Numbered from the stretch's first letter, positions 18,579-60,010 are shown. The stretch: DNA of 64,000 nt from a virus (IMGVR_UViG_3300025162_000043:14055-78054), one strand, 5' to 3'. The notes: generated by a model from the letters alone, not told the origin. A program made the numbers and translations.

Positions 18579-19910
18579 GTCAACTACTCCTAGCCTAAAG
18601 GCATAGGGGCTTGTAATACTTCCTTACTAGCAGAAGATTTACATACAATTGGCGAATTGACTGTCGCCTGCCCATAAGTCAGATTCGAGGTCTGTGATAC
18701 GGGAAGTTTGGATAATTTTGCTATATTTATACTAGCATTGATATCCGCATCATAAACAAGACCGTTTTTAGAATAAAACCTACAACCATGTCTTTCACCT
18801 TCAATCTTACCGCTTACGCAGTCAGTTTGAGAAGTATAAGATGGGCGAACGAAAGTTATGGTTTTACCCATATTCTCTGCCTTATATGTTATTATTCTAC
18901 GGAGTTCAAACATCGGTACTTGACTAATGTTTCTCTTATTTTGATATCTATTTTTCTTTTTCTTTATTCCTTTGAGATTTTCTAATACAATGGTGTCGGC
19001 ATTAGTTTTTAATACTTCATTGGCAATTAAATGAGTTTGATTTTTATTTTGGTTATGCTCTTTATGACGCAGTTTGTTAAGATGTTTTTTGGATGATTTA
19101 TTACTTTTAGATTTAAGACAATCTTTTAAATGTCTTAACTTACGTTTATTACCATTAAATTTTTTATCAATAATTAATCTACCATCTGATGTGGCGGCAC
19201 TACGTCTAATTCCTATATCAACCCCCAATGCTAATTTCTGGTTTAACATTTCTTTTGGTTTATTTTCAAAACAAAAAGAAATAAACAATTTTCCATTATT
19301 TTCGTAAATAAGCGGATCTTTATATTGATATTTATCCAATAGTTTCTTAAGTTGTGGATAAACAACAAATTTAAAAGACTGTCGTTTGTTATTAGTGGTA
19401 ATTCGGATGGAATATTTATCTTTTTTATCTTGAGAATAAAGTCGTTTATCAAGACGCATTGATAAATTCTTCTTAATAATTGGAAATTTTAATTTGTGTT
19501 TATTAGATTTTGTGGATTTGTAACTGGAAAGACACTCCTGTTCCGCTTTAATAATTACTTGAGATGGAATGTTTGAATATTGTTTTCGAATATTATTATA
19601 AACTTTAGAATGGAGAATTATCAGCGAATTCTTTTTTTCAGTAAATTGAAGTTGGGAAGCGAAGTTAAATACTATTTTATGCATATCAAGAATTGATTTC
19701 AGCGAATCAAAATCTTCTTCATTTTTCATTAAAAGTTGAGTATTATAACTTAGCACACTAATATATATCATTGAAATTATCAAAACATCAAATTATTTCA
19801 AAATAAATGATTTTTCTTTTGTTGACATTTGGAAAGGATGTGTTAACATTAAGAATGGTCGCAATTCCTCCGCTACCCTAAAGGGATAGCGGTTTCCTTG
19901 CTCCAAAAAT
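18579..19910 (-). mobile_element. tnpB-only IS200/IS605-family (IS1341-like) element
   Basis: LE hairpin ~19858-19904; RE hairpin 18579-18613 ending GTAGTTGAC; preceded by TTCAT; removing it joins the stop at 18575 + TAT to ATG 19911. Confidence 0.85.
18590..19783 (-). CDS. tnpB: TnpB RNA-guided endonuclease (Zn-finger-less variant)
   Basis: RuvC motifs LGVDIG / IVLENL / DADINAS all intact; YTSQ present but no CxxC pairs; C-terminal QAP overlaps the RE. Confidence 0.92.
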   Translation of the reverse strand: MIISMIYISVLSYNTQLLMKNEEDFDSLKSILDMHKIVFNFASQLQFTEKKNSLIILHSKVYNNIRKQYSNIPSQVIIKAEQECLSSYKSTKSNKHKLKFPIIKKNLSMRLDKRLYSQDKKDKYSIRITTNNKRQSFKFVVYPQLKKLLDKYQYKDPLIYENNGKLFISFCFENKPKEMLNQKLALGVDIGIRRSAATSDGRLIIDKKFNGNKRKLRHLKDCLKSKSNKSSKKHLNKLRHKEHNQNKNQTHLIANEVLKTNADTIVLENLKGIKKKKNRYQNKRNISQVPMFELRRIITYKAENMGKTITFVRPSYTSQTDCVSGKIEGERHGCRFYSKNGLVYDADINASINIAKLSKLPVSQTSNLTYGQATVNSPIVCKSSASKEVLQAPMPLG

Positions 19911-20144
19911 ATGAATATGCCGTTCAAATCACCCCAAGAAGCTATCGATGCCTGTGAAGCCGAATCCCTACGAGCCTGGCAAGAATACCTCGTAACTAAT
20001 AAACTCGACCCCGAGAAATCTCCCAAAGCCTGCGCAGCCGCTCATCGTGTGTTCCACGCAGGTTATATCGCAGGCGCTAAATGGGTCAGCGGTGCCATCA
20101 TCGAAAAAATGATGGCAAATGACAATCCAAACTTAATATGGTAA
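19911..20144 (+). CDS. hypothetical protein
   Basis: 77-aa ORF starting at the element boundary. Confidence 0.65.
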   Translation: MNMPFKSPQEAIDACEAESLRAWQEYLVTNKLDPEKSPKACAAAHRVFHAGYIAGAKWVSGAIIEKMMANDNPNLIW

Positions 20145-20330
20145 CTGCCCACTCGGTGATGGCCTCATCCGCCGACCACTGTTCATTAACCAATCATCCA
20201 CCTCAACCGTGTGCTCTCGATAATATTGCCACCCCAAAGGATTAACCGGATCCTTCTTCCCACTCTCGCAAATCAAAAATGACGGCACATTCTCCAAATA
20301 TACAACCTTACCTTTTAATTCTTTTTTCAT
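20133..20330 (-). CDS. hypothetical protein
   Basis: 65-aa ORF overlapping the upstream gene. Confidence 0.5.
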   Translation of the reverse strand: MKKELKGKVVYLENVPSFLICESGKKDPVNPLGWQYYREHTVEVDDWLMNSGRRMRPSPSGQLPY

Positions 20331-20760
20331 ATTTTTTTACCTTCTTGGGCCTCTTTACCCATGTCACCTTCGCAGGTTCTAAATCATACATAACAAAATA
20401 TCCGCAAATAGTTCCATATTCTTCACTCCGATCATCCCCGTTGTCATATAATATCCCCCCGTTAAAAGCAATCGCCGCGTGCCCAAACCTATCGTCAACC
20501 ATCGAAAGACTAACAATACTGTAACCCTCTGGCCCAATCGGACCGTTTAATCGTAACCCCCCAGTCTCCATAAACGCACGAGCAGGAATATATACCAACC
20601 CCCTCCGAAAATTCTTCTTCAACCATACCCGAGTCATGTTCATATACTTCTCCCCATATAACTTCACAAACTTCGGAACCCGCTCAGGCTCTATCTCCAA
20701 TAAACATGCCAAACAATCCGACCAACATGTGTTCTCTGTGTTAGTTATATACTTTTTCAT
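20308..20760 (-). CDS. hypothetical protein, possible papain/C39-like Cys peptidase
   Basis: CWSDCLACLL...VPKF...GHAAIAFNGGILYD (Cys-His-Asp spacing). Confidence 0.55.
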   Translation of the reverse strand: MKKYITNTENTCWSDCLACLLEIEPERVPKFVKLYGEKYMNMTRVWLKKNFRRGLVYIPARAFMETGGLRLNGPIGPEGYSIVSLSMVDDRFGHAAIAFNGGILYDNGDDRSEEYGTICGYFVMYDLEPAKVTWVKRPKKVKKYEKRIKR

Positions 20761-20927
20761 ATCCCACTACATTACCATACCCAATTCCAAAAAGCAAGCT
20801 ATAAAATTTGTTTTCCAGGATTTTTTTGAAACACCTATACCTCTACTACAAATTCTATGCCTATAAAATACGCATATGCATGAATACGTATATGTAGCTA
20901 TTAAAAGTAGTATCCATATGTTAAACA

Positions 20928-21010
20928 GGTAGGGGGGGCGATTGGGAGGGGTGTTTTCAGGCCTGTTCAGACACACACCCCCGGGGGAGCCGGGGGGGAG
21001 TCTGGGGGAC
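20928..21010 (+). other. G-run tract at a compositional boundary (candidate terminus/packaging site or origin; G-quadruplex potential)
   Basis: six runs of 3-7 G within ~80 bp in an AT-rich genome, plus a CCCCCGGGGG palindrome. Confidence 0.5.
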
Positions 21011-21012
21011 TA

Positions 21013-21495
21013 TTAGGTTTTCTTAACTAAGTACCATTTAGATCGGGGAATATTGCTTTCCCGATCAATGTCTTCGTCTGGCGTCAAGTCGATTTTTCCG
21101 ATAGTTCCATCTTGTGTCCCGTACGTGGACAAACAATTCCGTACCGATTGCGGCCGGTATCTTGTCGTACCATTGGCAAACCTTACGCCGACCATGTCAA
21201 TCACTTCGGTCGTGAATAGACTGACGCCGATTGCCACTGGCCGAATTTCAGTCTTCTCAATACCTCTTGGCAATTCGGCATTGGCCATTCTAAGAATGTC
21301 CCGGACTAACTCCATGATGCCAATTACAGATGATTGCTTGCTCTTGCCAAGCTTGGCATAATGCGCTTGGAAGTGTGGCCGGACACCGGCAATGGTCAGC
21401 GTATTGTTGATCGCTTTGCAATTGTCAAGAATTTCAGAGGACATGGCTATAGCCGCCTCTTGATCCGCGTTCACTGATTCAATTTTATTTTGCAT
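21013..21495 (-). CDS. hypothetical early protein
   Basis: ATG 21495 follows a TTGACA promoter; the longer ORF-track start runs through the repeat. Confidence 0.7.
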   Translation of the reverse strand: MQNKIESVNADQEAAIAMSSEILDNCKAINNTLTIAGVRPHFQAHYAKLGKSKQSSVIGIMELVRDILRMANAELPRGIEKTEIRPVAIGVSLFTTEVIDMVGVRFANGTTRYRPQSVRNCLSTYGTQDGTIGKIDLTPDEDIDRESNIPRSKWYLVKKT

Positions 21496-21664
21496 ACTTG
21501 CCACTAAGATCGCACAACCAAGCTCAATTGTCAAAAAGTATTTGAAACTACTTTTTGCGCCAGCGAGGGAGGGAAGAAATACTGGCCAGTAAATGATTCG
21601 GTGAAACGAGGGCAAAAAAAGAAATACTGGCCAGTAAATGGTTCGGTGAAACGAGGGCAGGAAA

Positions 21665-21691
21665 AGGCTCCCGGGAGCAATTCCCGGGAGC
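21665..21691 (-). terminator. intrinsic terminator (example of the hairpin present in each intergenic unit)
   Basis: GCTCCCGGGA..TCCCGGGAGC followed by CTTTT on the minus strand; similar at ~22355, 23769, 25187, 26651, 27172, 28726. Confidence 0.75.
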
Positions 21692-21707
21692 GTGAGATTA
21701 GGAATCG

Positions 21708-22082
21708 TTATGCTTCGTTGGGATCGCTAGGCCATCCCTGAATTGCATTGGCCGGGAGCAGCCAAGTGCAATTGCCCTGCCCCGGACCGCTAACATAGGT
21801 TCGGAGCGTGCGCCCAAAGTAGGTCACGCGGTTGGCAGACCCATCTGCCGGCTTATAGCTGATGGTGCAGACCATCTTGACCTGCGCCTTGCCATCGGCA
21901 ATGGCTTTGTTCAACCGGCTAACGGTCACGCTTCGGGTCTTGCCGACCTGCACGCCAACGGCAACGGCAACCGCGTCAAGTTCCTCCGTGGACATAGACG
22001 CAATAAGGACGGATGCGGCAGCAGGCTTGCTGGTTTCAGGGGCAGCGGCAATGATGTTTTCGGCAGTATTTTCAGTATTCAT
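21708..22082 (-). CDS. hypothetical early protein
   Basis: 124-aa ORF, GC-rich relative to the window. Confidence 0.75.
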   Translation of the reverse strand: MNTENTAENIIAAAPETSKPAAASVLIASMSTEELDAVAVAVGVQVGKTRSVTVSRLNKAIADGKAQVKMVCTISYKPADGSANRVTYFGRTLRTYVSGPGQGNCTWLLPANAIQGWPSDPNEA

Positions 22083-22397
22083 TTGATTGTCTTTCCAACA
22101 CAGTATTTTTCGAGACTTGGCGGGCTTACGTATCCCGCTCTCAACATATAGACCATAACACAGGTTCTCTGTTTGTCAAAAAGTATTTGAAACTATTTTT
22201 GATCGCTATCGTCCGAGCTGAGGTTCTCCGGCATGGGGGAAGAAATACTGGCCAGTAAATATTCAAAGAAATACTGGCCAGTAATTCTTGCCATGCACAG
22301 TAAATGATTCGGTGAGCACAGTATTTAATTCGGTGAGATTTGGGCAGGGAAAAGGCCCCGGATGTCTGCCTCCGGGGATGAGTGATGATGCTTTCCG

Positions 22398-22649
22398 TTA
22401 TTTATCAGCGTGCAACGCGATTGAACACCTGACATGGTGCAAATCGCTTTGATGGGTATATGTCGCGCCATCAATTGACCATGCATACCGGCATCCTTCG
22501 TAGCTACCATCGAAACCCCAATAGGTGCCAACTTCTATCACGGTACAGGTTACTGCTACACTTATCAGTTTTGATCGCCGACCGTTGCCAGTCCGGTGGT
22601 GAACTAAATTTCTAAACTTCATTCCCAGAACAATGGGTGTATCATTCAT
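22398..22649 (-). CDS. hypothetical early protein
   Basis: ORF downstream of TTGACA...TATGAT promoter. Confidence 0.6.
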   Translation of the reverse strand: MNDTPIVLGMKFRNLVHHRTGNGRRSKLISVAVTCTVIEVGTYWGFDGSYEGCRYAWSIDGATYTHQSDLHHVRCSIALHADK

Positions 22650-22906
22650 GTCCATATCATACATCATCCAGGTAATTTGTCAAAAAATATTTACAACTAC
22701 TTTTGATCGCCAACCCGGCTTCCCTGCCTTGACCGAAGAAATACTGGCCAGTAAATATTCTTATATCGCCTAATGTATTTAGAAATACTGGCCAGTAATT
22801 CTTGCGGAGCACAGTATTTAATTCGGTGAAATTTGGGCAGGAAAAAGCGAAGGACCGTACCATTTCTGGCACGATCCTTGCTCGTGTTGTGTTCTCGAAT
22901 GGCCAA

Positions 22907-23509
22907 CTAATCGGCTAAAATGGATTCGACTTCGGCCATTTCTGGCATTTCAACTACTACGCCAGATGCTCTTAGATAATAGACGTTTTTGAGATTGACG
23001 GCAATCACGGAGGGCTTAAAGTCTGGTTTTTCAGTTTCCTTGTAAAGCCAGGGAGCAACCACTTCATCAAACTCTGGTTCATTGGCTTCATTACAATAGG
23101 CACGTGTGGACTTATGCGGGAAGTATTGGAGATAGTATTGACCATCACGCTTGGCTTCGTCCTTGTGTTGGACCAACGGAAGATTTTTGCCGTCTATGGT
23201 CTTAAGGTGTTCATACCATGTTTCGCCGTTCTGGTACTCAACTTGGGACAATTCGACGCCAAGCTTAGCAGCAATCCGAGTGCAAACGCTAGTATTATAG
23301 TTAGCGTTGACAATGCCAATCTTCCGGGATACCTTATACAAGCCATTTTTGGACTTGGCAGATGCTCCCCAGGGGTTTCCTGCCTTGATCTTGACCACTG
23401 GCGTTTTGCTAAGGATAGCGACAAACCGGCAAGCTGTTCCATTGGTCTTGATAAAACCGAGCATCTCTAACACGGATACCATTTGAACCACATTTTTCTT
23501 GTCTAACAT
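22907..23509 (-). CDS. hypothetical phage protein
   Basis: 200-aa ORF with own promoter and terminator. Confidence 0.8.
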   Translation of the reverse strand: MLDKKNVVQMVSVLEMLGFIKTNGTACRFVAILSKTPVVKIKAGNPWGASAKSKNGLYKVSRKIGIVNANYNTSVCTRIAAKLGVELSQVEYQNGETWYEHLKTIDGKNLPLVQHKDEAKRDGQYYLQYFPHKSTRAYCNEANEPEFDEVVAPWLYKETEKPDFKPSVIAVNLKNVYYLRASGVVVEMPEMAEVESILAD

Positions 23510-23808
23510 ATTTTTACTTTCGAGTTAACACTAGAGAGCGTGTTGCTCTCTTACACCAACACCATACCACAGGTTCTCTGTTTGTCAAAAAGTATTTGAA
23601 ACTATTTTTGATCGCTATCGTCCGAGCTGAGGTTCCCCGGCATGGGGAAGAAATACTGGCCAGTAATTCTTAATTATATTATTCCACGGGTATTATATTA
23701 AGAAATGTTTACTGGCCAGTAATTCTTACGATGCACAGTAAATGATTCGGTGAGAAGTACAAAAAAAAGGCCCGAGGTTTATACCCCGGGCGTGATCGAC
23801 CAGATAAT

Positions 23809-24846
23809 TTATGCGGTAGTATTCGCCAATAGCTGTTTGCCTAAGTCAACACAACCGTTGAATGATTCGTCATCATCATCCCTAGTAACCAATCGCCAAA
23901 AATCGGCTTTAGATTGCTGCCCCGAACCGTATTCGGAGGAAAGGAATTGACGCATTGGATTGGTGTCTTTGCCACTAGAGTAATGCGTATAGTAATCAGT
24001 CACCGCTGAAAATGCGTCGGCACGAGTACTACCGCCATTCCCCTTGCCAGACTCATAAAGGTTTACAAGTTGCAATATAGTATTGTTTGCCCGAGTGGAA
24101 AGACCTTTTTCCACGGTCTTTGCATCGGTTATTCTACGCCCGAGGAAGCCAGCAAAGAGATTTGTAGCGACTGGACTAGACAACGGCACTTGGCTTAGTT
24201 TTTGAAATTCAAGTTGAAATTCAGCTTGAACGCCAATTGCCTTATCGATCAATTTCGCCATCTCTGGCAACCGCATGATTGCGTTTTTTGTGTGGCGCTG
24301 GCGGATACGAATATCATCGGAATTATCGGAATGTTTATTTTCCACGCTAAACAGATTGGAAGAAAATGTATTGTCGCAAACCGTGCATGTATTACTAGTA
24401 TTGACCCACAACACCGAGGATTTATCGTGTCCGTTGCCGAAATTGAGGTAGGCGGAGAATGAACGACCGCCAGCGACAAATGCTTCCATACCATTTAGCT
24501 TAGTGGAAACAAAGACCCTGCCCCTGTTGCGGACACTTCCCACGGAAACAATTTCATGCGAAGTTCCGGCGATACTAGCCCTGACCAGTTCAAGGAAGGA
24601 TTTGTTGTCAACCGGCTTGAAAGTTTCGGGGTTGTAGGGTTGCCCTATTTCAACGTCGGGAATGTCAGAGCATTCAAGGACTGCCCATTTCGATGGTTTC
24701 CCACGTTTTTCCAGGAGAATGGGTTGCACATCCCATTCTGTTAGCCAATTATCTTCTAACGTGATAACTGGCTTGATCTTAGTAAGACCGTGCCATGCCT
24801 GTTGAATACCTTGCTGTTGATCGTTCTGTTCTATTCTATGAGCCAT
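23809..24846 (-). CDS. DUF932/DUF945-family phage protein
   Basis: AWHGL...GSVRNRGRVFV...NGHDKS...TVCDNT...RHT...AFSAVTDY. Confidence 0.8.
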   Translation of the reverse strand: MAHRIEQNDQQQGIQQAWHGLTKIKPVITLEDNWLTEWDVQPILLEKRGKPSKWAVLECSDIPDVEIGQPYNPETFKPVDNKSFLELVRASIAGTSHEIVSVGSVRNRGRVFVSTKLNGMEAFVAGGRSFSAYLNFGNGHDKSSVLWVNTSNTCTVCDNTFSSNLFSVENKHSDNSDDIRIRQRHTKNAIMRLPEMAKLIDKAIGVQAEFQLEFQKLSQVPLSSPVATNLFAGFLGRRITDAKTVEKGLSTRANNTILQLVNLYESGKGNGGSTRADAFSAVTDYYTHYSSGKDTNPMRQFLSSEYGSGQQSKADFWRLVTRDDDDESFNGCVDLGKQLLANTTA

Positions 24847-25246
24847 ATTTTGATTCTTTCAATTTAATTGTTTTTTACTCTAACAATTACACACTACATC
24901 TAAACAGGAAAAAGTCAAATTGTTTTTGATTTATTTTGGATTTATTTGATGCACTAAAAAGAATTTAAGCACCGACGGCAGAGAGCGGCGGAGGCCGAAG
25001 AAATACTGGCCAGTATTTCTTATACTATATTTCAATAGTATTCCGCCCGTTATTATATTAAGAATTTGAAGAAATACTGGCCAGTAAATATTCAAAGAAA
25101 TACTGGCCAGTAATTCTTACGATGCACAGTAAATGATTCGGTGAGAATAGTATTTAATTCGGTGAGCGAAGGATGAAAAACAAAAATGCCTCTGGTTCCG
25201 ACCAGAGGCACCTATACAATATGAATATAGAACCGCCAAAGAAATC

Positions 25247-25960
25247 TTACATTTTCACAGTCTCTTGTTCTCCAACATGGAGGACTTCTGTTTTATATTC
25301 TTCTGATTGACTGCAATAACCACCTTCATAATGCCCATAGTAAACATTCTGAGGATCAAAGATTGTTCCGAGTTTTACTTTTTTGCATTCACATGCATAA
25401 AGATTGCCCCGAGGAGTACAGAACAATCCACCACAGCAACCAGCTTTTTGACTGCGATTGCCCCAGTTTTTAGCCCTGCCCATTGCTTGAACATAAGTTA
25501 TTTCGCCATTTATGTCCCTGCAATCGTATTCATTCTGAAAGTTAGACGCATATAAATCTTTTTTAGGGCGTTGAAATGCTTTGCGTACTTTATCAGTAAC
25601 CATACTTTTATCATGGTATTGATCTTGAGATAAACGACACCCAATAACTCCGCGCTCTGCCAAGTGTGCAAGCGTAAGAGAAACATTCTCATTGGTGCCG
25701 TTAGTTACCATAAACACAGCAGGAGACCCCAGACTATTGGATTGGGATGCTAATTCCCATACAGCATACATAAGGAATTCCTGAAAAAGTGGATGCAAAG
25801 TAGGTTCTCCGCCTCCAATAGTAATTGAACAATCCTGATCGGAGACAAGTTTAATTGCCGCGTGGAAAGTTTCCCTGCTCATATCGGTTCCCTTGGCAGT
25901 GCAAGCAAAACAGCAGTGACTGCAAGTCATATTACATTTTGTCGAAATCTGTATATACAT
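25247..25960 (-). CDS. radical SAM protein
   Basis: CNMTCSHCCFAC (CxxxCxxC), GGGEPTLHP, TNG, Cys-rich C-terminus. Confidence 0.9.
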   Translation of the reverse strand: MYIQISTKCNMTCSHCCFACTAKGTDMSRETFHAAIKLVSDQDCSITIGGGEPTLHPLFQEFLMYAVWELASQSNSLGSPAVFMVTNGTNENVSLTLAHLAERGVIGCRLSQDQYHDKSMVTDKVRKAFQRPKKDLYASNFQNEYDCRDINGEITYVQAMGRAKNWGNRSQKAGCCGGLFCTPRGNLYACECKKVKLGTIFDPQNVYYGHYEGGYCSQSEEYKTEVLHVGEQETVKM

Positions 25961-25996
25961 ATATCGTCTCCTACATTAACACAGTCTATCCTGTTG

Positions 25997-26419
25997 TCAA
26001 ATGGTTATTCCTGAAAGTTTGTTCACGATTGAATGCTCTGCACAGACAGGGAATTCCAATCCGTTTGTTTCCCGTCCTTCTGCTTGTTCCAGGAGGTTCC
26101 GCAAGTGAGCATCATTTGACACACAAGAATAAGACAGCGTAGAATACAATGACCCTGGCTTAGGTGGAGCGTATGGAGTCCAACCGTCCAAATAGCTTTG
26201 CATCCATTCTGGCAATTTATCACATTGATTCCAATCTTCATTGCACTTTGTTTTGAATTCCGCATTGGCAATATCCCAGAGACGATCAAGGATTTGATCG
26301 TTTGGCATGAATTCAAACTTATTCAAGTATGCTTGTGCAAGCTCGTCTATTTGATTAGTTCGGAATAAAATTGCGGCGAAGTAATTCATTAACGGTTGTG
26401 ATTCAATTTTTTGTTTCAT
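25997..26419 (-). CDS. hypothetical protein
   Basis: 140-aa ORF with upstream TTGACA promoter. Confidence 0.7.
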   Translation of the reverse strand: MKQKIESQPLMNYFAAILFRTNQIDELAQAYLNKFEFMPNDQILDRLWDIANAEFKTKCNEDWNQCDKLPEWMQSYLDGWTPYAPPKPGSLYSTLSYSCVSNDAHLRNLLEQAEGRETNGLEFPVCAEHSIVNKLSGITI

Positions 26420-26742
26420 ATTGTATTAACACCTTACACCATAAGCATATAAATGTCAAACGGAATTTTCAAATATCTTTTAGGCACCGCCGACGAAGAT
26501 CATACGAAGAAATACTGGACATTATTTCTTGGTGGAACCGTGAGCATCCTATGAACATCCTGTGAGCATCCTATGAGCATAGCAGAATAATTACTGGACA
26601 TTATTTCTTGTCTGAGCACAGTAAATGATTCGGTGAGAAGTACAGAAAAAAGCCCCAGCATTGAATGCTAGGGCCACATGGATTATTTATATTGTATATT
26701 AGTATTTCATATTATTTTATTGTGTTATAGTTTAGTCATTCG

Positions 26743-26988
26743 TCAGAGAAGAGGCGAGAAATTCTCGTGATATTCAGCTATGCAAAAAGATGTCATATCA
26801 TTCAACTTTGCATATCCTCGTTCATCAAGATCAAGGGCACCGCTGAAAAGTGATTGAAACTTGTCAAGAGCAGTTTTAAAGTCACATGGAGCAGATTCGG
26901 CTAAAACTTTGTTGGCTCCATATTCTAACCGAATTAAAGCATATCGTTTCATACTGTTGTAAACTCTATCATTGTTCCCGTATGTCAT
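26743..26988 (-). CDS. hypothetical protein
   Basis: 81-aa ORF with own promoter. Confidence 0.65.
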   Translation of the reverse strand: MTYGNNDRVYNSMKRYALIRLEYGANKVLAESAPCDFKTALDKFQSLFSGALDLDERGYAKLNDMTSFCIAEYHENFSPLL

Positions 26989-27216
26989 ATCTATTACACC
27001 ATAACATACTCCTGTAAAATGTCAAAAAGTTTCTTCAAATATCTTTTATACACCACCGACGAAGATCAGGCGAAGAAATACTGGCCAGTAATTCTATATC
27101 ATAGATATACATTTACTGGATATTATTTCTTGCCAGGCACAGTAAATGATTCGGTGAGAAGTACAAAAAAAGCCCCCAGCTTAAAGAAGCTAGGGGCTTC
27201 GCTCACTACAAACCAA

Positions 27217-27915
27217 TCATTGGCGCATTACTTTTTCGCTAAACAGTTTTTCGGCCAATGTATATTCATCAGGAGCAAGGTCCGCGACATGCAACAACTC
27301 ATCCCAATTGCGGGCTAAATCATTTTCCGAACCGAGAAAATGGTTATATCCGCTATTACCTTTAACTTGTGCGAGAACAAAGCCATCACCTGTTACCACC
27401 AAGCTATTAACTTGCGGAGTAACCCATTCTTGCCCGAGAATATAAGCAACAATGCTACCCATCTTTGGGGTCATAAGCCTAAAGCCTTTGGGATTAAGTT
27501 TTTCCACAAGTGTAAATATTGAAGCGGGAAGATTCCAAATTTCTCGATATTCATGCAGGACAATTTTCTGACAATCTTTGGGCAATTCAGAAAAAGGAAT
27601 GCGCGTGCCAAGATAATTTTTGCGACCAATAGCAGGAGCAAATCCTGCCTTATTCACGTCAACTTGACGCTTGCTTTCACTACGTTCAAAAGTACCTTTA
27701 GAATCAAACGGATTCTCCGACATGTAAATCCATAGGAATCCAGTAGGACCAGTTTTCGTACAACACTGCCGATTCGGGATTGAACGATATTTGCCCGAGT
27801 AAATAACAACATATCGCTCATCAGAACCTAAACAACAATTGTCATAAACTCGAATGTATCTTGGAATGCCTTTAGGCATTAGTGACCAAACTCTATTTGC
27901 AGTTTTTTTATTCAT
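27217..27915 (-). CDS. hypothetical phage protein
   Basis: 232-aa ORF with own promoter and terminator. Confidence 0.75.
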   Translation of the reverse strand: MNKKTANRVWSLMPKGIPRYIRVYDNCCLGSDERYVVIYSGKYRSIPNRQCCTKTGPTGFLWIYMSENPFDSKGTFERSESKRQVDVNKAGFAPAIGRKNYLGTRIPFSELPKDCQKIVLHEYREIWNLPASIFTLVEKLNPKGFRLMTPKMGSIVAYILGQEWVTPQVNSLVVTGDGFVLAQVKGNSGYNHFLGSENDLARNWDELLHVADLAPDEYTLAEKLFSEKVMRQ

Positions 27916-27953
27916 AGTAATACCTTACACCTATTTATATTTTTGTCAACCGA

Positions 27954-28244
27954 TTAGTTAAAGAATCTTGCGCTAGTAACTAGCTGCCGAACAAGACATT
28001 TGGCATCCCGTCTGCTACTTGCCCGAACAAAGACCTGAACTGGTTCAAATTCAGACCAAGCACAATACATGTTGGTTTCTGGAGTGTATCCCCAATACGC
28101 CCCGCTTTTATCATAATCTAAATCAATCCATTTAAGTTTTTCCATGTGCAATTTAATAGGGGCATTAACATCTTGAGGCAAACGAGTTAACCTGCCCATA
28201 CTTGCGCCGAACATATTACATGCTTTAGGAAGAATTAGTTTCAT
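27954..28244 (-). CDS. hypothetical phage protein (YDxxGAYWG motif)
   Basis: 96-aa ORF, GASMGR...YDKSGAYWG. Confidence 0.7.
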   Translation of the reverse strand: MKLILPKACNMFGASMGRLTRLPQDVNAPIKLHMEKLKWIDLDYDKSGAYWGYTPETNMYCAWSEFEPVQVFVRASSRRDAKCLVRQLVTSARFFN

Positions 28245-28281
28245 ATTATTACCTTAGCATAGTTATTGAAATTGTCAAATA

Positions 28282-28551
28282 TTATCTACAATCTTTTTTA
28301 TATTGTTTACGCCATTCTACCGGGGAAAGTGTCTGAGTGGTATGTGGGCGAAATTCTAATTCACCATCTTCCCGCGAGCCAATATAACCATGTTCTGTTT
28401 TAGTGGTTGCGGGAATACTGAAATAAGTGTCGGGGATAGTTGCTTTGCATCTTACTAGTTTACCAGTAACGGAATGAAAAACGATTGCTTGACGAGTGAA
28501 CATGCCATAATCCCGACATTGTTCCTCAGATCCAATTGAAGTTATATTCAT
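28282..28551 (-). CDS. hypothetical protein
   Basis: 89-aa ORF with own promoter. Confidence 0.65.
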   Translation of the reverse strand: MNITSIGSEEQCRDYGMFTRQAIVFHSVTGKLVRCKATIPDTYFSIPATTKTEHGYIGSREDGELEFRPHTTQTLSPVEWRKQYKKDCR

Positions 28552-28975
28552 GCTTCACACTATACCATAAAATACAAATGTCAAAAACTTTCGTCAAATA
28601 TCTTTTGGACACCGCCAGCCATACGAAGAAATACTGGCCAGTATTTCTTTATCATAATATAAGAAATACTGGACATTATTTATTGCCAGACACAGTAAAT
28701 GATTCGGTGAGAAGTACAAAAAAAAGCCCCCGGGAGTGAGAATCCCGGGGTATAGCGCCTGGCCAGCGTTATTTAATGGTTAGATGCTGAAATATATTGT
28801 GGCATAAGAGGCCTAAGCATTTACAGTTTATTCTGCTGTTCTATCGGCTACTCTCTATTAGAACCATTCGATGCCACGAAATGTTATTTGCTATCAGTTA
28901 TTTCGTATTTTTCAATGTCCAATGTTTCAATGTTTACTTCGTCATAAATCTAATTGTTATCAAACGGAATTCATC

Positions 28976-29167
28976 TTAAGAAAACAGGTCATAACTCATT
29001 GGCAAGGATTGAACCGCTTCTGAGGCATGTTTCCTGGCACAAATAAAGCCAATGCAAAAAGAACGGGCTTGTTTATAGTCATCAAAGGTGTATATATCTT
29101 TTGCAAGTACACCAGATTGAACTTCAACTGTAATATGATCTTCGTGGTTAGTGATAATTAGTTTCAT
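28976..29167 (-). CDS. hypothetical protein
   Basis: 63-aa ORF. Confidence 0.6.
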   Translation of the reverse strand: MKLIITNHEDHITVEVQSGVLAKDIYTFDDYKQARSFCIGFICARKHASEAVQSLPMSYDLFS

Positions 29168-29172
29168 ATAAG

Positions 29173-29421
29173 TTAATGGCTTTTACTTAAATCATCTGTC
29201 TTATCGGGAATAGCATCCCACAAAGTATCTGCTTTACTCTTAGCTTCTTCCATAGCAGTTTTGTATTCCCGCTCCATTGTTGGTGTGAGCCAAGACATGT
29301 ACCAGCTAAGGGTTGCTTGATAGATGTCCCTGTAGTTTTTTGCCGCTTTGAGATATTCGCGGTGCGCGTCATTGAAGCAAACAACCGTACCCCAGTTCCC
29401 GAGATAAACTTCAGTTTTCAT
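29173..29421 (-). CDS. hypothetical protein
   Basis: 82-aa ORF with TTGACA/TGCTAATGT promoter. Confidence 0.65.
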   Translation of the reverse strand: MKTEVYLGNWGTVVCFNDAHREYLKAAKNYRDIYQATLSWYMSWLTPTMEREYKTAMEEAKSKADTLWDAIPDKTDDLSKSH

Positions 29422-39555: not shown

Positions 39556-40342
39556 TTTTCGGAGTAATCTTTACAGCGGGCACACTGACAGTTTTATTTT
39601 TAGACTTAGCATAATGACCAAAATAATCAGACTTGTAACCACCTTTGCCAGACTTAATAATCTTATACCATGCTTTCCCTGCCTCCGAATTTTTAGGCTG
39701 TTGGCCATGAATCACAATAGCAAAGTCTTTATCACCCTTCCAACACAAACAATCATCATGATCAATCTCAAGATTCAATTTCTCCGCCTCATCCTCCGAA
39801 AATACAACCCTCACCGAACGCAACCCCAGTGCATCAATCAATATATCATGCGTACCACCACGAGAAGCAACTAACTTCATATTGAAAGGAATTGAATTAA
39901 GCCGCTTGGCCCAATACGGCAATGCCTTAGTATAACCATATACTACAAATTCAGAATGTTGTTCAGCAAATAATACCCAAGCATCAAAATATGCCTGACT
40001 AAAGAAATCACCACTGGAATGCATCCGAACTAACTTGATATTCTCCTTTCCAAACAAAGAGGATTCAATTAGATTTGCCATTCCGATTGTTGTTTTTGCC
40101 TCTTTAATCAATTCAAAATTCCGCCAGCGGGATTTTCTCACGTTCGGAAAAAGACATTCTGCCCCAGTAGCATAACAACGGAATTTGCAATCCTTCCCAT
40201 CTTCAATCTTCCCAGTAACTTTATTCACATGACTCCTACAATCCTTGGCAAAAGGACAACTATATCCCGCAGGCAAAGAAAGAATCGCGGTATCTCTTTC
40301 TAACTTAGCATTCCCCAATCCAAAAGTTAATTTGTTAATCAT
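39500..40342 (-). CDS. GP88-family (radical-SAM-related) phage protein
   Basis: LSLPAGYSCPFAKDC...CYA...VRMHSSGDFFSQAYF..W...YTK. Confidence 0.8.
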   Translation of the reverse strand: MINKLTFGLGNAKLERDTAILSLPAGYSCPFAKDCRSHVNKVTGKIEDGKDCKFRCYATGAECLFPNVRKSRWRNFELIKEAKTTIGMANLIESSLFGKENIKLVRMHSSGDFFSQAYFDAWVLFAEQHSEFVVYGYTKALPYWAKRLNSIPFNMKLVASRGGTHDILIDALGLRSVRVVFSEDEAEKLNLEIDHDDCLCWKGDKDFAIVIHGQQPKNSEAGKAWYKIIKSGKGGYKSDYFGHYAKSKNKTVSVPAVKITPKIDTMRANYDSIFRKVTYA

Positions 40343-40456
40343 ATTATACCCCAACACACAATCGATAATTGTCAAATTCTTTTTATATAAATAATGCTCT
40401 CGTCACTGCTATCCTATGAAAAATACAATAACGAGAGCATTCACAATCCCACGTTC

Positions 40457-41161
40457 TTAAATGTTTACCAGATTAGTCTCAAGCACAGGAATAGCTTCAG
40501 GAGTAGCTTCGGCTTGATTAGTCTCAAACGCAGCAGCAGCCTCAGGAGCAACTTCAACTTGAACAAGAGTAACTTCAGCAACAATGGCAGGAGTAACGAC
40601 AGAAACCACTTCAGGCGTAATTGTCACAGCAGGAATGGTCAATGAGGGGATAATTTCAGGAGTAGCAAGAATAGCATGAATTGCATCAAGCTTATCAGCG
40701 GTTGGTGTCTGGCTCTTGCTAATAGGTGTTTTCTCCTTAGCAACCTTAGTAACCGCAGTAACCGCAGTATCCTTCCCCGCACGAAGACTAAACAGTAAAG
40801 CCCTACGGCCAAGCCCCTTCTTGGAATTAGGCTCCGCTGTTATACCCCGTATGGCAATGATAATACTACGCGGATTTGCCTGCGTTCTATTCGCAGCAAT
40901 AATACGCTCCCCCTTCTTGTGAAAATACATGTCCCGCTCTATTGCCTTGCGAAGTGTAAGCATAGAACATAATGGACCTTTCCCAAATGTCTTGCTCTCC
41001 GAATCAGTATCAATATCGTTCGCTATCATCCAATCCGTAAATGTCCACTCCTTAGACTTGGGAAACTTCGGCGAATACTTTGGACGACCAGGACGATCAT
41101 ATTGCTTCTCAATAATTGCTTTCTTCGCGGCATTTACTTTGTTTTTACTATTCTTCTTCAT
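40457..41161 (-). CDS. basic hypothetical protein with low-complexity tail, possibly DNA-binding
   Basis: RPGRPK, GLGRRALLF, A/V/T/E-rich C-terminus. Confidence 0.7.
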   Translation of the reverse strand: MKKNSKNKVNAAKKAIIEKQYDRPGRPKYSPKFPKSKEWTFTDWMIANDIDTDSESKTFGKGPLCSMLTLRKAIERDMYFHKKGERIIAANRTQANPRSIIIAIRGITAEPNSKKGLGRRALLFSLRAGKDTAVTAVTKVAKEKTPISKSQTPTADKLDAIHAILATPEIIPSLTIPAVTITPEVVSVVTPAIVAEVTLVQVEVAPEAAAAFETNQAEATPEAIPVLETNLVNI

Positions 41162-41274
41162 AACTATTTTTTCTTTCTATCTATTTTTGTTTTTGGCTTA
41201 ACTATTTTTTTCTTAACTATGTCAATACGTTACTACATGTATATGCATCTGTCAAATTCTTTTTTATATTTCTT

Positions 41275-41836
41275 TCACCACTTACAATTCGCAGTTATAT
41301 ACAACGGCGCAATAAATCCTAATGGAGTAAGAATGTTCTCCAAATCATCGTAAGTATAATCTACATTCCTTTTCGCCACATCAACGGCAGCATCAACTAT
41401 TCGGATTGCTTCGTCTGTCTTCATTCCTTGGGGAATAATAAAATGTAAATCATACTCCCTATCAGAATCTTTGTCTTGTACTGTAATCAATCTCATATTA
41501 TTTTTCATATTTTGTTTACCAGTGTTAACTTGTTTTCTCTCTTTTGTATGGTGAAATTGGTATAAAATGCCAAAACAAGTTAACGCTCTCTCAATCAAAT
41601 TGACTCATTCCCCGTATAGCATCGGGTTGTACCATAGTAAACGGGCAATATGGCTCTACCCTGCCACAATCTTCCCCCGATCTCCACCACTTAATGTCAT
41701 AATAAGAAAGAGGTTCTCCCTTCTCATCTTCGTAAGTTACTTCATCCCCCGCAATAAATTCCTGAGACAAAAGAAATTCTTTCTCAGTGTCAAATGTTTG
41801 AACTACAAATCCAATTGTTATTTTTTTAATAATCAT
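41275..41836 (-). CDS. two hypothetical proteins (41275-~41508, 41591-41836)
   Basis: ORF track. Confidence 0.55.
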
Positions 41837-41879
41837 ATATGCACTTTCGCATGTCTTTCGTAATTGTCAAATTCTTTCT

Positions 41880-42600
41880 CTCTATTTTTCTTTTTCTTTT
41901 CTCAACCCCCACCAAAAAACAAATACTGGCCAGTAATTGTTTGAAGAAATACTGGATAGTATTTGTTTTTTATGCCAGTAAATAAGCATACTTATGTTCG
42001 GTGAGAATAGACACATTTATATACGTATATATATGTGTAAAGAATATTTACACTTTGTAATGCAAAGTGATTTGCAGCGCAAAGTATATATACCAGTAAA
42101 TAGTATAGATAACGCTCGGTGAAATTGGGTAAATATATGCTGTTTTGCTAAGGAATATGCATATTTATCACTCGGTGAGATTGAAATGTATTTATATACG
42201 TATTGCTTTCTATTGGAATATATGTGTATGTATTCTTTATATTTCATTCAAATTGCTCTGTATCACAGAGTAAATTACAAGAAATATAAAAACTGAGAAT
42301 TTAACAAGTGAATACGTATTCAAAAATGAATTATAATATATCTATACGTTGCATTAGAATTACTGGATAGTAATTATTTCATAAACATTAGAGTTACTGG
42401 ATAGTATTTGTTTACGCATACCAGTAAATAAGCATACTTTAATTCGGTGACATTTGCATGGATAGGCGAAAGGAAACTGGAATATGGATATATGCACGTC
42501 TATACACCAGTAATAAGCATACTTTAATTCGGTGACATTTGCATGGATACAACGTATATTTTACGATGATATCTGGGATATGTATTGGCAAAAAGAAGTA
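41880..42600. other. AT-rich non-coding repeat block at the C-to-G skew switch (candidate origin or end of first-transferred region)
   Basis: TATATACGTATATA and TGAATACGTATTCA palindromes; repeated CCAGTAAATAAGCATACTT and TTCGGTGA. Confidence 0.5.
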
Positions 42601-42610
42601 AGGAATAATT

Positions 42611-43069
42611 ATGATTGAAATACAGAAATCTAAAACTGCCGACACTCGGACTTGTGATTATGTCAATACTAGCAAGTCAACACTTTTGGCATCAAGCCGC
42701 CAGCACATTGGGGACATTGCGAAGGCATTGGCGTTCTTCAGCGGCAAGATGACTGAGGCCGCAGCAGAGCACGACTACGACAAGCTGACAGCAATCGACG
42801 GGTTTCATGCCGACTTTGTGACTGGGTTCAAGCAGACTGGATGGTGGGACAACCACCGAAAGGTCCATCGTCATCATCTTTCCGCTCCTGACGGCGTGCC
42901 AGAGAACGTGAACCTGTTGGACGTGTTGGAATACATTTCAGACTGCGTGATGGCTGGAATGGGACGCAGTGGAAGCGTTTACGAACTAAAGGTTCAAGAC
43001 GAGTTACTACAGCGTGCTTTCCGAAATACGGTTGAACTTCTGAAGGCTGAGATTGTGGTAAAGGAATAA
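42611..43069 (+). CDS. HD-like (DUF5662-type) protein
   Basis: HI...HDYDK...HRKVHRHH...DVLEYISDCVMAG; GC-rich relative to flanks. Confidence 0.7.
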   Translation: MIEIQKSKTADTRTCDYVNTSKSTLLASSRQHIGDIAKALAFFSGKMTEAAAEHDYDKLTAIDGFHADFVTGFKQTGWWDNHRKVHRHHLSAPDGVPENVNLLDVLEYISDCVMAGMGRSGSVYELKVQDELLQRAFRNTVELLKAEIVVKE

Positions 43070-43215
43070 ATAATATAAAGTAATTATTTCATACACCAGT
43101 AATTAGTATTAAGAACGTTCGGTGACATGGATAGAAAGCAGGCACCGATGGATTAGAATATGGATATATGCATACCTGTATATCAGCACATTAGTATATT
43201 CAATGTTCGGTGGGA

Positions 43216-43491
43216 TCAGAGGGTAAGGTACCATTTATTATTTGCGGTATTGATTTCGGAGATTAGGCTATGGTAAGCATGTTCCAGAGTTAATTTACAA
43301 TGACCAGTTATTTTTAAACTAGGGGACCATTGGGCGGAGAGAATATATCCACATTTCCCCTCATATTTTCCATAGGAGAGGATAAGGGTATTGAAGGGGA
43401 ATGTTTCCATGACAGAGTTACCGTTGGGGTTTATTCCGTTATATTTTAAGGTACTACCTTTTAGTTGCAGTTCTATTTCTTCGTATGTCAT
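43216..43491 (-). CDS. hypothetical protein
   Basis: 91-aa ORF. Confidence 0.6.
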   Translation of the reverse strand: MTYEEIELQLKGSTLKYNGINPNGNSVMETFPFNTLILSYGKYEGKCGYILSAQWSPSLKITGHCKLTLEHAYHSLISEINTANNKWYLTL

Positions 43492-45073: not shown

Positions 45074-46158
45074 TCAAGAGGAATTGGAGCCGACGGAGAC
45101 AATTTTGACTTTGAGTGGTTTATATTCCCTGCCGAGGTAATATGCCATTGTAGATTCCATATAATTCTCTATATCTTGTCTTAGTCGTTCAACTGTTGTG
45201 TCGGTGATATTATCGGGCAATTCAATTTTTAGATAGTGGGTGATTTTACTCATAACATGTGAACCTCTAATTTTTAACTCATCCATATTTGTTTTGAACG
45301 TCTTGTCGGTTTTATTAATTGTGTTATCATATTTTGTGTTATATTAGATTATAATTGATTTTTTATCGAGCCAATCGAATGATATAGTAAATAATCCACA
45401 CCCGAAATAGAATCTACTATGTCCATTATATTTGTCCACATAAGGCCAACAAAATCCATTTAGGGTAAGTAATGTAAAAACAAACCATTTACTATATCCA
45501 TTAGCTATGCCATATGGAAATTCTATATAAATTAAACAATTATTACAATTTCCCTTGTTAGAATAGGAAGGTGATGTTAATCTAAAACGTTTGTAAGACA
45601 ATTCCATATAACAGGGTGTTTCTTTTTTTTAATAATTCAATATTAGTCATAATTTTTTAATTTATAATATTCTTTAGTAGCATCTACCGCCAACTTCTTA
45701 TAATATTCTTTTATAGCATCTTCCATCATGTTAAATTGGGCCAGACATTGTTCACAGGGTTTAGTACCAAAACATTGATTACAATTAATCCATGAGAAGC
45801 AATGAATCAATGCTAGATTTAATTTTTTGGCAACTTCCTTCCACGTATCTAATTCAGTTTCATTATTATTCATAATTTTGCCAATATTACAGTGTAGATT
45901 CCATGCTCATGTTACCTCCATTTTAATTTCGTAACGTACTTCGTCCAAAAAATCATGTAATAATGTCATTTCATCGATTTTATTCTGTATTTCTTTAATA
46001 TAACATTCCAACTTAGTTTGATGTTTAGAATCTATTACGTTTCCACGTTTAATCATTGTACACCATCCCATTCGATATTTATTAAATTGTGCTTTAAATT
46101 TATAACCACGTTTTGTTAGGGTAAATATGGTGGTATTTTTAGGTTTTTTAATTTTCAT
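45074..46158 (-). CDS. cluster of small hypothetical proteins (45074-45286, 45344-45607, 45643-45873, 45907-46158)
   Basis: co-oriented ORFs. Confidence 0.55.
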
Positions 46159-46220
46159 ATTTTGTGGTGTATCATTACTACGTCATTGTTTTCGATTTTT
46201 ATTATATGTGGTTTTATATT

Positions 46221-59092: not shown

Positions 59093-59175
59093 GCTATTTG
59101 TGAAGCATAATATTACCACCATTCGGGAAAAAGTCAAATAAAAAAGTAACTTTTTTCGCTTGGCGTGATATTTAT

Positions 59176-60007: not shown

Positions 60008-60010
60008 ATT

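Follow-up and report, generated by a model that had tools for sequence, protein, structure and literature searches.

In an uncultured freshwater phage an exact 7-8 base word, TTCGGTGA, is concentrated in the early-gene region, where it lies almost entirely on one strand and is at background in genes of the opposite strand. We tentatively interpret this word, with a probability of roughly 0.4, as an orientation-dependent barrier or operator element acting on transcription, similar to stoperators or to Ter/TTF-I sites, and read by a conserved phage factor. TTCGGTGA would then be the invariant core of an asymmetric cis-element, built into early-gene cassettes that resemble PeSL (promoter-early stem-loop) modules, and its most likely reader would be a conserved DNA-binding factor from the phages' own genomes; these phages form a clade of uncultured and apparently large freshwater viruses. 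The element would act on the transcribing RNA polymerase in an orientation-dependent manner, insulating the leftward early transcription units and controlling the few rightward genes; such an action is suggested by the sites being located beyond leftward terminators as well as in the promoter spacers and genes of rightward units, with no enrichment in leftward genes. A protein would bind the word, and the bound complex would block polymerase arriving from one particular direction. A broader proposal, in which we place less confidence, is that the word marks the host-takeover region and that, by means of a bound protein or a strand-specific break, it may allow RNA polymerase only one direction of travel.

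The window (the whole 64-kb stretch of DNA that was analysed) contains 45 exact copies of TCGGTGA, 38 on the plus strand and 7 on the minus strand, versus about 5 expected (mean 4.98 and maximum 12 in dinucleotide-preserving shuffles). Between 21,598 and 43,125 we counted 32 plus-strand copies and only three on the minus strand (32202, 39149 and 39811; binomial p = 4e-7), in agreement with the original prediction of about 30 plus-strand and about two reverse copies between 21.6 and 43.1 kb. A strand-specific k-mer comparison within the window points the same way: among the 7-mers of 21.0-43.5 kb TCGGTGA ranks first both in frequency and in strand asymmetry, with 32 plus and 3 minus copies inside this interval and 7 and 3 outside. 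The enrichment is limited to 21.6-43.1 kb, and the rest of the 78-kb contig, which is a genome fragment, shows background counts. The extended consensus is G-R-T-TCGGTGA-R-A, and a CAGTA half-site, which is also half of the palindrome TACTG-NN-CAGTA, often lies 5-6 bp upstream of TTCGGTGA. Tandem copies are spaced by 9-14 bp or 21-22 bp, and the complement of the arrays is rich in C and poor in G. None of 21 one-mismatch variants of TCGGTGA is enriched or strand-biased in six phage contigs that contain 137 exact dominant-strand copies; such near-absolute exactness is seen more often in enzyme recognition sites than in operator families, and it counts against the barrier or operator reading.

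Most copies are part of a repeated intergenic cassette with a fixed order and orientation. Read along the minus strand, it comprises an intrinsic terminator, one to three TCACCGAA units, the palindrome TACTGGCCAGTA, a strong sigma70-type promoter and a small early gene. The units between 21.6 and 29.7 kb are flanked by predicted promoters (TTGACA-N16-TAnnnT, mostly with an upstream TG) and by predicted terminators made of a GC-rich hairpin and a T-run. The features of the region are as follows:

21598..43125, plus strand: motif-rich early-gene region (32 plus-strand and 3 minus-strand TCGGTGA)
21580..21691, minus strand: cassette 1, with palindromes at 21580 and 21625, TTCGGTGA directly after each (21598, 21643), and a terminator at 21667-21691
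22152..22377, minus strand: cassette 2, with a promoter at 22152-22179 (TTGACA, N16, TATGGT with TG), palindromes at 22246 and 22272, and a terminator at 22356-22377
22309 and 22330: motif units of cassette 2, 21 bp apart
22656..22879, minus strand: cassette 3, with a promoter at 22656-22683, palindromes at 22742 and 22786, a motif at 22823 and a terminator at 22850-22879
23561..23791, minus strand: cassette 4, with a promoter at 23561-23588, palindromes at 23654 and 23710, a motif at 23747 and a terminator at 23770-23791
25004..25213, minus strand: cassette 5, with palindromes at 25004, 25075 and 25101, motifs at 25138 and 25159, and a terminator at 25184-25213
26431..26675, minus strand: cassette 6, with a promoter at 26431-26459, TACTGGACATTA palindrome variants at 26513 and 26592, a motif at 26630 and a terminator at 26651-26675
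26998..27200, minus strand: cassette 7, with a promoter at 26998-27025, a palindrome at 27079, a variant at 27114, a motif at 27151 and a terminator at 27169-27200
28557..28750, minus strand: cassette 8, with a promoter at 28557-28584, a palindrome at 28632, a variant at 28667, a motif at 28704 and a terminator at 28728-28750
29613..29847, both strands: divergent control region, with a minus-strand promoter at 29613-29640, palindrome variants at 29688 and 29723, and a plus-strand promoter at 29820-29847
29749, 29771 and 29793: three motif units of the divergent control region, 22 bp apart
29854..31706, plus strand: gene block with sense motifs at 30032, 30314, 31030, 31059 and 31224
30101: motif in the spacer of the plus-strand promoter 30093-30120, within the 29854..31706 block
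32421..32496, minus strand: short cassette, with a palindrome at 32421, a motif at 32452 and a terminator at 32469-32496
34617..35015, plus strand: gene divergent from the minus-strand promoter 34529-34556, with sense motifs at 34645, 34782 and 34809
38009..38169, minus strand: cassette with palindromes at 38009 and 38104, a variant at 38080, and motifs at 38141 and 38163
41924..43125, plus strand: AT-rich stretch with few ORFs, six longer-form copies (CCAGTAA, N16-19, TCGGTGA) and other short repeats, forming the right edge of the motif-rich region

The cassettes are mutually 84-98% identical over 79-129 nt; for instance, cassette 5 shares 96% identity over 99 nt with cassette 2, and its left part 95% over 95 nt with the cassette at 38009..38169. 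TACTGGCCAGTA is present in 19 exact copies and one copy with a single mismatch, versus 0.05 expected, and is represented in cassette 6 by the variant TACTGGACATTA. The 19 exact copies are all preceded by AGAAA and followed by A(A/T)T, the latter starting with A instead of the T expected of a true palindrome, and this asymmetry is the same in the copies beside plus-strand genes (31789, 35428), so that the flanks indeed keep one orientation beside genes of both strands, as had been noticed earlier.

Analysis of the placement of dominant-strand copies, pooled over the six phage contigs (115.6 kb), reveals 96 intergenic copies (2.48 per kb), 34 copies within same-strand genes (1.50 per kb) and only 7 within opposite-strand genes (0.13 per kb, i.e. 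background), an 11-fold dependence on gene direction (Fisher p = 2e-12). Minority-strand copies occur at 0.06-0.22 per kb. Codon usage is not the cause of the motif, because sense copies in majority-direction genes are at background (0.06 per kb). The in-gene copies of the window (30032, 30314, 31030, 31059, 31224, 34645, 34782, 34809) fall in differing reading frames. Six of these eight had been listed before and are real, while 31059 and 31224 are additional. Relative to local transcription the orientation of the motif varies: past leftward units it is on the antisense side, whereas in rightward units it is sense, a point against the barrier or operator reading. The motif is thus polar at the DNA level, yet its placement depends on the direction of transcription. 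The original prediction of a DNA-level polarity signal is supported as regards orientation, since the word keeps one absolute strand here and in five relatives, but not as regards independence from transcription, which is contradicted by 2.48 and 1.50 copies per kb against 0.13 in opposite-strand genes.

The dependence on gene direction also bears on the idea that the word is a Chi- or KOPS-like signal, or another polarity signal for translocation, nuclease action, replication or packaging, read by a host or phage motor from one end. The exact, short, G-rich word, its single absolute orientation and its clustered and tandem copies would suit such a signal, as would the local minimum of cumulative GC skew at ~42 kb, adjoining the AT-rich array, at which three related contigs end. 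However, an 11-fold effect of gene direction is not predicted for a motor-directed word, the motif is tied to the palindrome, terminators and promoters, and the enrichment is regional (~22 kb), with no mirrored enrichment found across the AT-rich region. The assemblies of G000, G001 and G003 run straight through the AT-rich array, which is therefore not established as a physical end. When 185,579 species genomes were scanned for the palindrome and the motif as a pair, only single, chance-level matches appeared; hence no host use of the cassette was found, and none of these genomes carries it. A genome-wide role of the KOPS/Chi-like kind proposed earlier is accordingly not supported, and we regard a polarity signal of any such kind as improbable, at about the level of an outside chance.

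At nine of the ten strongest minus-strand terminators between 21 and 36 kb the motif follows the stem at a distance of 10-20 nt, and 51 of 125 arrays (41%) have the start of an opposite-strand terminator within 40 nt on their 3' side, mostly at 0-11 nt, compared to 9.9% for randomly chosen positions and 8.8% for the mirror side. The distance from the motif to the next promoter is loose (90 to about 220 nt). In five promoters from four contigs the motif is located within the -35/-10 spacer, in the sense orientation in all of them, and no promoter with an antisense motif in the spacer was found. Copies inside terminator/palindrome/promoter cassettes, on one side of terminators and in five promoter spacers look like a regulatory or barrier site, so that a protein-binding site remains a candidate, contrary to the statement that the word is not a transcription-factor site. 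Some features of this geometry count against a barrier or operator, namely that only 41% of the arrays adjoin terminators, that no inverted copies were found after plus-strand terminators, and that many early promoters between 32.5 and 41.8 kb have no cassette.

The same distribution makes it very improbable that the word functions at the RNA level, where a ribonuclease, small RNA or termination factor would recognise UCGGUGA in rightward mRNAs or else UCACCGA in read-through RNA of the leftward units. Such a function would agree with nearly all in-gene copies being sense, with the C-rich, G-poor complement of the arrays, and with two copies in G001 located 4 nt ahead of a start codon, where GGUGA could serve as a Shine-Dalgarno sequence. 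But 96 of the 137 dominant-strand copies are in non-transcribed spacers, past terminators and upstream of promoters, the five promoter-spacer copies precede the start site, and no Rfam family matches the motif.

Five related IMG/VR contigs were retrieved via a common 200-aa early protein. All five retain the cassette and the exact word (motif strand counts 26/5, 25/2, 11/24, 27/6 and 15/4), as do about a dozen metagenome contigs (GC 36-56%), and the core together with the palindrome is present in metagenome relatives with GC of 0.41-0.56. In the five related phage contigs the motif keeps one absolute strand beside minus- and plus-strand genes, as here, and in L039 and G003 the motif strand inverts along with gene direction. 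G001-G005 all retain the core genes 21013, 21708, 22907 and 23809; G001 lacks the genes that separate the cassettes at 25-29 kb, and G002 has its DUF932 gene at another location. Arrays equivalent to 41924..43125 occupy the same relative place in G001, G002, G004 and G005. Homologs of the gene 34617..35015 in three other phage contigs also contain sense copies (4 of 4 family members), mostly at non-aligned positions, and comparison of these sequences suggests repeated gain. A comparison with 50,697 phage records gave no nucleotide match, and proteins gave distant matches only (an RNA ligase, 25% identity to Bacillus and Rhodococcus phages).

These comparisons allow another explanation to be weighed, in which the word is an ordinary upstream activator or repressor site of the early-promoter cassette, and its strand bias results from recombinational copying and shared gene direction, as in PeSL-like shuffling. 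The close similarity among cassettes, the inversion of the motif with promoter direction in relatives and the variable gene content between cassettes fit this explanation, and T4-type PeSL cassettes show the same promoter-plus-terminator repetition and shuffling (PMC2839356). It leaves unexplained, however, the 34 same-strand in-gene copies (1.50 per kb versus a background of 0.06-0.2), the repeated gain at differing positions in homologs, the sense copies in promoter spacers, and the tight distance to terminators as opposed to the loose distance to promoters. We consider it unlikely, although less so than any other alternative to the barrier or operator.

The main rival to the barrier, to which we assign a slightly lower probability than to the ordinary promoter site, is a strand-specific nick site or enzymatic mark, with a phage nickase cutting the plus strand at TCGGTGA. 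This would account for the exactness of the word and the absence of enriched one-mismatch variants; its occurrence on almost one strand only and its retention in related phages fit the reports on tf, T5 and phiKMV-like phages (PMC3517423). It would also account for the non-enrichment in opposite-strand genes. Polymerase would stall at a template-strand break, and sites would therefore be tolerated only intergenically or on the non-template strand. On the other hand, a density of about 35 sites in 22 kb is far above the known cases (4-14 per genome), nicking of all tandem sites at their 9-14 bp or 21-22 bp spacing would release tiny unstable oligonucleotides, the CAGTA half-site, the palindrome and the promoter-spacer placement resemble a protein-binding architecture, and our search gave no nickase candidate. 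As for the protein that would read the element as a barrier or operator, the conserved early proteins have no helix-turn-helix match in Pfam or PHROGs, and no HTH family or gp71-like repressor was matched among 38 proteins scanned (about a fifth of the genome). In a 124-aa protein the only domain recognised is a weak SAP/HeH-like one at the N-terminus (best Z 5.6), and fold comparison of the 200-aa protein gave nothing significant. That these searches produced no DNA-binding protein counts against the barrier or operator. No sign of lysogeny was found.

If the one-way system is real, it would provide a fail-safe stop past each terminator and protect or silence the few opposite-strand genes, with the word also written into the coding sequences of genes in the permissive direction. 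A polar barrier of this kind would be a compact portable part (8 bp and one factor) for one-way transcription or gene insulation, and a new example of early-gene organisation in large lytic phages. The placement rule itself, i.e. enrichment in intergenic spaces and co-oriented genes with background levels in opposite genes, is a signature that can be searched for in other phage genomes. Whatever the mechanism, the motif can serve to trace this phage clade in metagenomes and is a concrete target for identifying a binding or cutting factor.

Among known systems, the Sal-box arrays of Pol I bound by TTF-I/Reb1, as well as Tus-Ter, employ asymmetric, one-orientation sites just past a T-rich release or terminator element; they involve unrelated organisms and proteins, and the analogy concerns mechanism only. 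Chi and KOPS words show a genome-wide excess, switch orientation at the origin or terminus and are read by a host motor (RecBCD/AddAB or FtsK), whereas in this 78-kb fragment the enrichment of the word is confined to one region. The single-strand interruption sites of T5, phiKMV-like phages and tf likewise have an exact one-strand consensus at similar places in related phages, as exemplified by the 14 nick sites of tf (TACT/RTGMC, top strand only, common to its relatives) (PMC3517423), but they are 4-14 isolated sites, as opposed to about 35 putative ones in 22 kb here, many of them in tandem and associated with palindromes. The PeSLs of T4-type phages are modules of a strong sigma70-like early promoter and a stem-loop terminator between small non-essential early genes (PMC2839356). 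The cassettes resemble them, by sequence, in being repeated promoter/terminator modules between small early genes, which shuffle among close relatives; neither a conserved palindrome nor an additional exact polar word, both of which are present here, has been described for PeSLs, and no T4 hallmark genes were seen in the 78 kb. The stoperators of cluster A mycobacteriophages (repressors of L5, i.e. gp71, and TipsytheTRex) are likewise short asymmetric sites with many dispersed copies in promoters and short intergenic spaces. The L5-type repressor is a monomer with two DNA-binding domains that binds an asymmetric 13-mer, present in promoters and at over 20 scattered sites and active in one orientation only (PMC9283540); the site described here is also bipartite, as would fit a two-domain monomer, and orientation-dependent action, established in L5 (PMC9283540), is what we propose for it. 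In L5 the orientation is constant with respect to local transcription and the whole prophage is silenced, whereas here, where no gp71-like repressor was found among the 38 proteins scanned, the orientation is absolute and the sites lie within about 22 kb, often in tandem, and adjoin intrinsic terminators.

The word TCGGTGA, the core of the oriented motif TTCGGTGA, has 45 copies in the 64-kb window (38 plus-strand and 7 minus-strand), whereas dinucleotide-preserving shuffles average 4.98 and never exceed 12. A table of all 7-mers ranks it first in both frequency and strand asymmetry at 21.0-43.5 kb, with plus/minus counts of 32/3 inside this region and 7/3 outside. The roughly 30 plus-strand and few reverse copies of the original prediction correspond to 32 and 3 copies between 21,598 and 43,125 (binomial p = 4e-7). 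The in-gene copies that it had named are all real; they lie in differing reading frames and encode F-G-E/D, L-G-E or S-V-x, and one of them supplies a stop codon. The palindrome TACTGGCCAGTA is present in 19 exact copies (0.05 expected), and its asymmetric flanks keep a single orientation in 19 of 19, including two copies beside plus-strand genes. The initial observation, including the retention of one strand beside both plus and minus genes, was confirmed in full. The word is exact: none of its 21 one-mismatch variants is enriched or strand-biased, as compared with 137 exact copies on the dominant strand (the strand with most copies in a contig, plus in the window). Avoidance of Type III restriction could bias strand use, but it would not produce the 9-fold enrichment.

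Analysis of the placement relative to gene direction was carried out with genes from our own codon-log-odds caller, pooling six motif-rich regions (115.6 kb in total).

Copies of TCGGTGA by location in the pooled motif-rich regions
Between genes: 96 dominant-strand copies, 2.48 per kb
Inside same-strand genes (sense): 34 dominant-strand copies, 1.50 per kb
Inside opposite-strand genes: 7 dominant-strand copies, 0.13 per kb
Minority strand, all three locations: 15 copies, 0.06-0.22 per kb

The motif had been proposed to be independent of transcription, which the densities in same-strand and opposite-strand genes (1.50 vs 0.13 per kb; Fisher p = 2e-12) contradict. The window's two "opposite-strand" copies sit in a questionable 76-aa ORF overlapping a cassette. 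A cause in codon usage or peptide sequence was rejected, since sense copies in majority-direction genes reach only 0.06 per kb. The plus-strand gene at 34617-35015 has homologues in three related contigs (G001, G002 and G003), and sense copies are found in all four genes; because they occupy mostly non-aligned positions, they indicate that the motif has been gained repeatedly in this family.

Between 21.6 and 29.7 kb the window contains a row of minus-strand units of one or two genes each. Read on the minus strand, each unit closes with a strong intrinsic terminator, followed by one to three units TCACCGAA-N5-TACTG (tandem spacing 21-22 bp), one to three palindromes (GAAA-TACTGGCCAGTA-AWT or a variant) and, ~50 nt past the palindrome, an A/T-rich stretch with the promoter TTGACA-N16-TAnnnT, in most cases with an upstream TG, and then the next small gene. 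Identity from cassette to cassette is 84-98% over 79-129 nt. The motif unit and the palindrome TACTG-NN-CAGTA share CAGTA, which makes up half of the latter, and therefore the full unit CAGTA-N5/6-TTCGGTGA is a putative bipartite asymmetric site of about 18-19 bp. A LexA-box reading was dropped: the half-sites TACTG/CAGTA match, but are separated by 2 nt instead of 10. The same polarity would result from a strand-specific nick at the word, and the exactness of the word and the precedents in T5, phiKMV-like phages and tf (PMC3517423) agree with it, whereas the tandem arrays and the palindrome architecture speak against it. The unit also recurs in a longer form to the right:

41924-43300: AT-rich repeat stretch with few ORFs, with six copies of CCAGTAA-N16-19-TCGGTGA within 41.9-43.1 kb

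This stretch contains two further repeat families, GAATATGGATATATGCA and TATATACGTAT, and coincides with a local minimum of cumulative GC skew; equivalent arrays are found at 46.1-46.5 kb in G001 and at the extreme contig ends in G002, G004 and G005. The stretch may function as an origin or as a regulatory hub, or it may simply be a repeat that breaks assemblies.

The motif lies 10-20 nt past the stem in 9 of the 10 strongest minus-strand terminators at 21-36 kb. Considering all contigs, 51 of 125 arrays have an opposite-strand terminator that starts no more than 40 nt 3' of TCGGTGA, mostly with a gap of 0-11 nt (controls: 9.9% for random positions, 8.8% for the mirror side). Spacing to the next promoter is loose (90 to about 220 nt from the motif, 46-113 nt from the palindrome), and in the window the stretches from leftward promoters to their terminators contain no plus-strand copy. 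A polarity word directed at a motor (Chi, KOPS, packaging), as originally envisaged, fails on these grounds: its density depends 11-fold on gene direction, its enrichment is confined to one region, and its copies are linked with terminators, the palindrome and promoters. The word was also found within the -35/-10 spacer of five promoters of same-strand genes in four contigs, always sense and never antisense, and in divergent control regions (e.g. window 29.6-29.85 kb; ~35.3 kb in G001) the array sits between the two promoters. Readings as a sigma54, MotA-box-like, ECF-like or phage-RNAP promoter were dropped by eye, as the spacing to a -10/-12-like element is inconstant (0-12 nt over the five spacer cases). 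Pure copying of cassettes fails as an explanation of the pattern, leaving the in-gene and in-spacer copies unaccounted for, and so does a signal acting at the RNA level, since the majority of copies are in untranscribed spacers.

With cassette copying, a motor-directed word and an RNA-level signal failing, what remains is a DNA element whose effect would be set by the direction from which polymerase meets it. Two sub-models fit the geometry equally well. In the first, a complex on the word would stop leftward polymerase, providing a fail-safe stop just past each leftward terminator and shielding rightward genes from antisense read-through; the word would be absent inside leftward genes because it would be harmful there. 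In the second, the complex would stop rightward polymerase, so that the word would serve as operator plus stoperators for rightward genes and keep head-on transcription away from the 3' ends of leftward genes.

Scanning metagenomes for the palindrome with TTCGGTGA 5-30 nt behind it returned 32 loci, of which about 13-14 are true relatives with the same cassette logic, some with GC 0.50-0.56. L017, L021, L024, L027, L034 and L071 (several GC 0.52 metagenome contigs and one contig binned as Bathyarchaeota) share the same 26-nt palindrome-plus-motif match, flanks included; as each contig has one copy, the match probably arose by chance within a single widespread sequence. A locus search with a single protein as query gave no loci, and a 4-sequence alignment of the conserved 200-aa early protein (22907-23509) led to five IMG/VR contigs (G001-G005; 21-91 kb) that share synteny with the window, with amino-acid identities of 33-71%. 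All carry the word in a regional, strongly strand-biased cluster, with strand counts of 26/5, 25/2, 11/24, 27/6 and 15/4 (0-6 for the reversed-word control). In G003 and the metagenome relative L039, whose early genes run opposite to those of the window, the motif is on the other strand. The consensus common to relatives is G-R-T-TCGGTGA-R-A, and some possess arrays without CAGTA, in which as many as seven copies are spaced alternately by 10 and 14 bp. Exact pattern scans of IMG/VR gave seven single chance-level matches for the 18-mer unit and zero for the palindrome with flanks. The cassette has only 13 single matches in 185,579 species genomes, all chance-level; thus, the element appears to belong to the phages.

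The source contig (78,054 bp, IMG/VR; the window comprises bases 14,055-78,054) has a CheckV completeness of 22%, an estimate that would suggest a large (jumbo-size) phage. Near-identical DNA is present in 11 metagenome runs (5 studies) of freshwater and lakes, with no RNA listed among these public runs, and several lake metagenomes contain the phage in abundance. A 22.5-kb megablast query gave zero nucleotide matches to close cultured relatives among 50,697 phage records, tblastn gave only distant protein matches, and Rfam and tRNA scans gave none. The contig also encodes an RNA ligase, NAPRTase, a DUF932 protein and a GP88-family protein, in addition to the following:

3051-15779, minus strand: 4,242-aa ORF, no Pfam/PHROG match
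18590-19783, minus strand: TnpB/IS605 OrfB-like gene, Cas12f1-like TNB domain (PHROG transposase, 3e-42)
21708-22082, minus strand: conserved 124-aa early protein, in most relatives, GC-rich ones included
25247-25960, minus strand: radical-SAM-domain protein (Pfam 9e-8), in its own cassette

Homologues of the 4,242-aa ORF in G001, G004 and G005 (30-47% identity) occupy the same position adjoining the early region. The TnpB-like gene lies ~1.8 kb left of the first cassette, within the window's lowest-GC stretch (0.327), and G003 has a 38%-identical copy located elsewhere. Two radical-SAM paralogues are found in L039 (5615-6298 and 7240-8007), and Vibrio siphophages have homologues that are 30-35% identical. 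GC is 0.44-0.47 in the region 20000-24000 (~0.38 elsewhere), where the early genes of highest conservation lie together with the first cassettes' GC-rich spacers. At 45613-46214, in a small-gene region right of the motif cluster, 600 bp are swapped for 33 other letters in a contig from three runs, an indel or replacement at the strain level. The contig's "inverted terminal repeat" consists of a 4,836-bp segment (window 59165-64000) and its perfect reverse complement (contig bases 1-4836). Its unitig depth equals that of the unique flank in four public runs (e.g. 16.4 vs 16.4 in X1), unitigs break at 59194/59302 at a ~110-170-bp element of about 3-fold depth, and a third copy of this element (86% identical) lies at contig bases 5863-6041; the repeat segment also has alternative left neighbours at 59165-59167. 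Most likely, then, the repeat is no real genome end but an artefact that arose when a short, repeated, promoter-like element was assembled.

Searches for the binder by Pfam and PHROGs found zero DNA-binding families among 38 proteins, the PDB sequence search with alignment A1 zero matches, and the ESM Atlas nothing usable for candidate binders. AlphaFold models of the 124-aa and 200-aa early proteins have pLDDT of about 70 each. The former shows a weak resemblance of three N-terminal helices to SAP/HeH domains, followed by a small beta domain, and its best structure matches, both weak, are the T4 endonuclease VII C-terminus (Z 5.6) and the Rho N-terminal helices (Z 5.4). The latter has no match above Z 4.4, the best being Sm/WYL/YaeO-like and within noise. 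As candidate binders, the two modelled proteins are leads only; further candidates are a conserved 160-aa protein, encoded with these two at 21013-23509, and the proteins at 39500-41161.

A literature search for the word, the palindrome and the placement rule found no description of them. The nearest documented case is the L5-type repressor, a monomer with two DNA-binding domains that recognizes an asymmetric 13-mer both at promoters and at over 20 dispersed "stoperators", active in one orientation only (PMC9283540). The likeness lies in the dispersed asymmetric site; the defining feature of L5 stoperators, however, is a constant orientation to local transcription, which the phage motif fails to keep. 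The promoter-terminator repetition of the window resembles PeSL (PMC2839356). The motif also resembles phage nick sites, which are defined by a physical break. We rate the motif as a putative dispersed, oriented phage control site, of a kind already known; what is unusual is that it follows an absolute-strand rule and that some copies are embedded in coding sequence.
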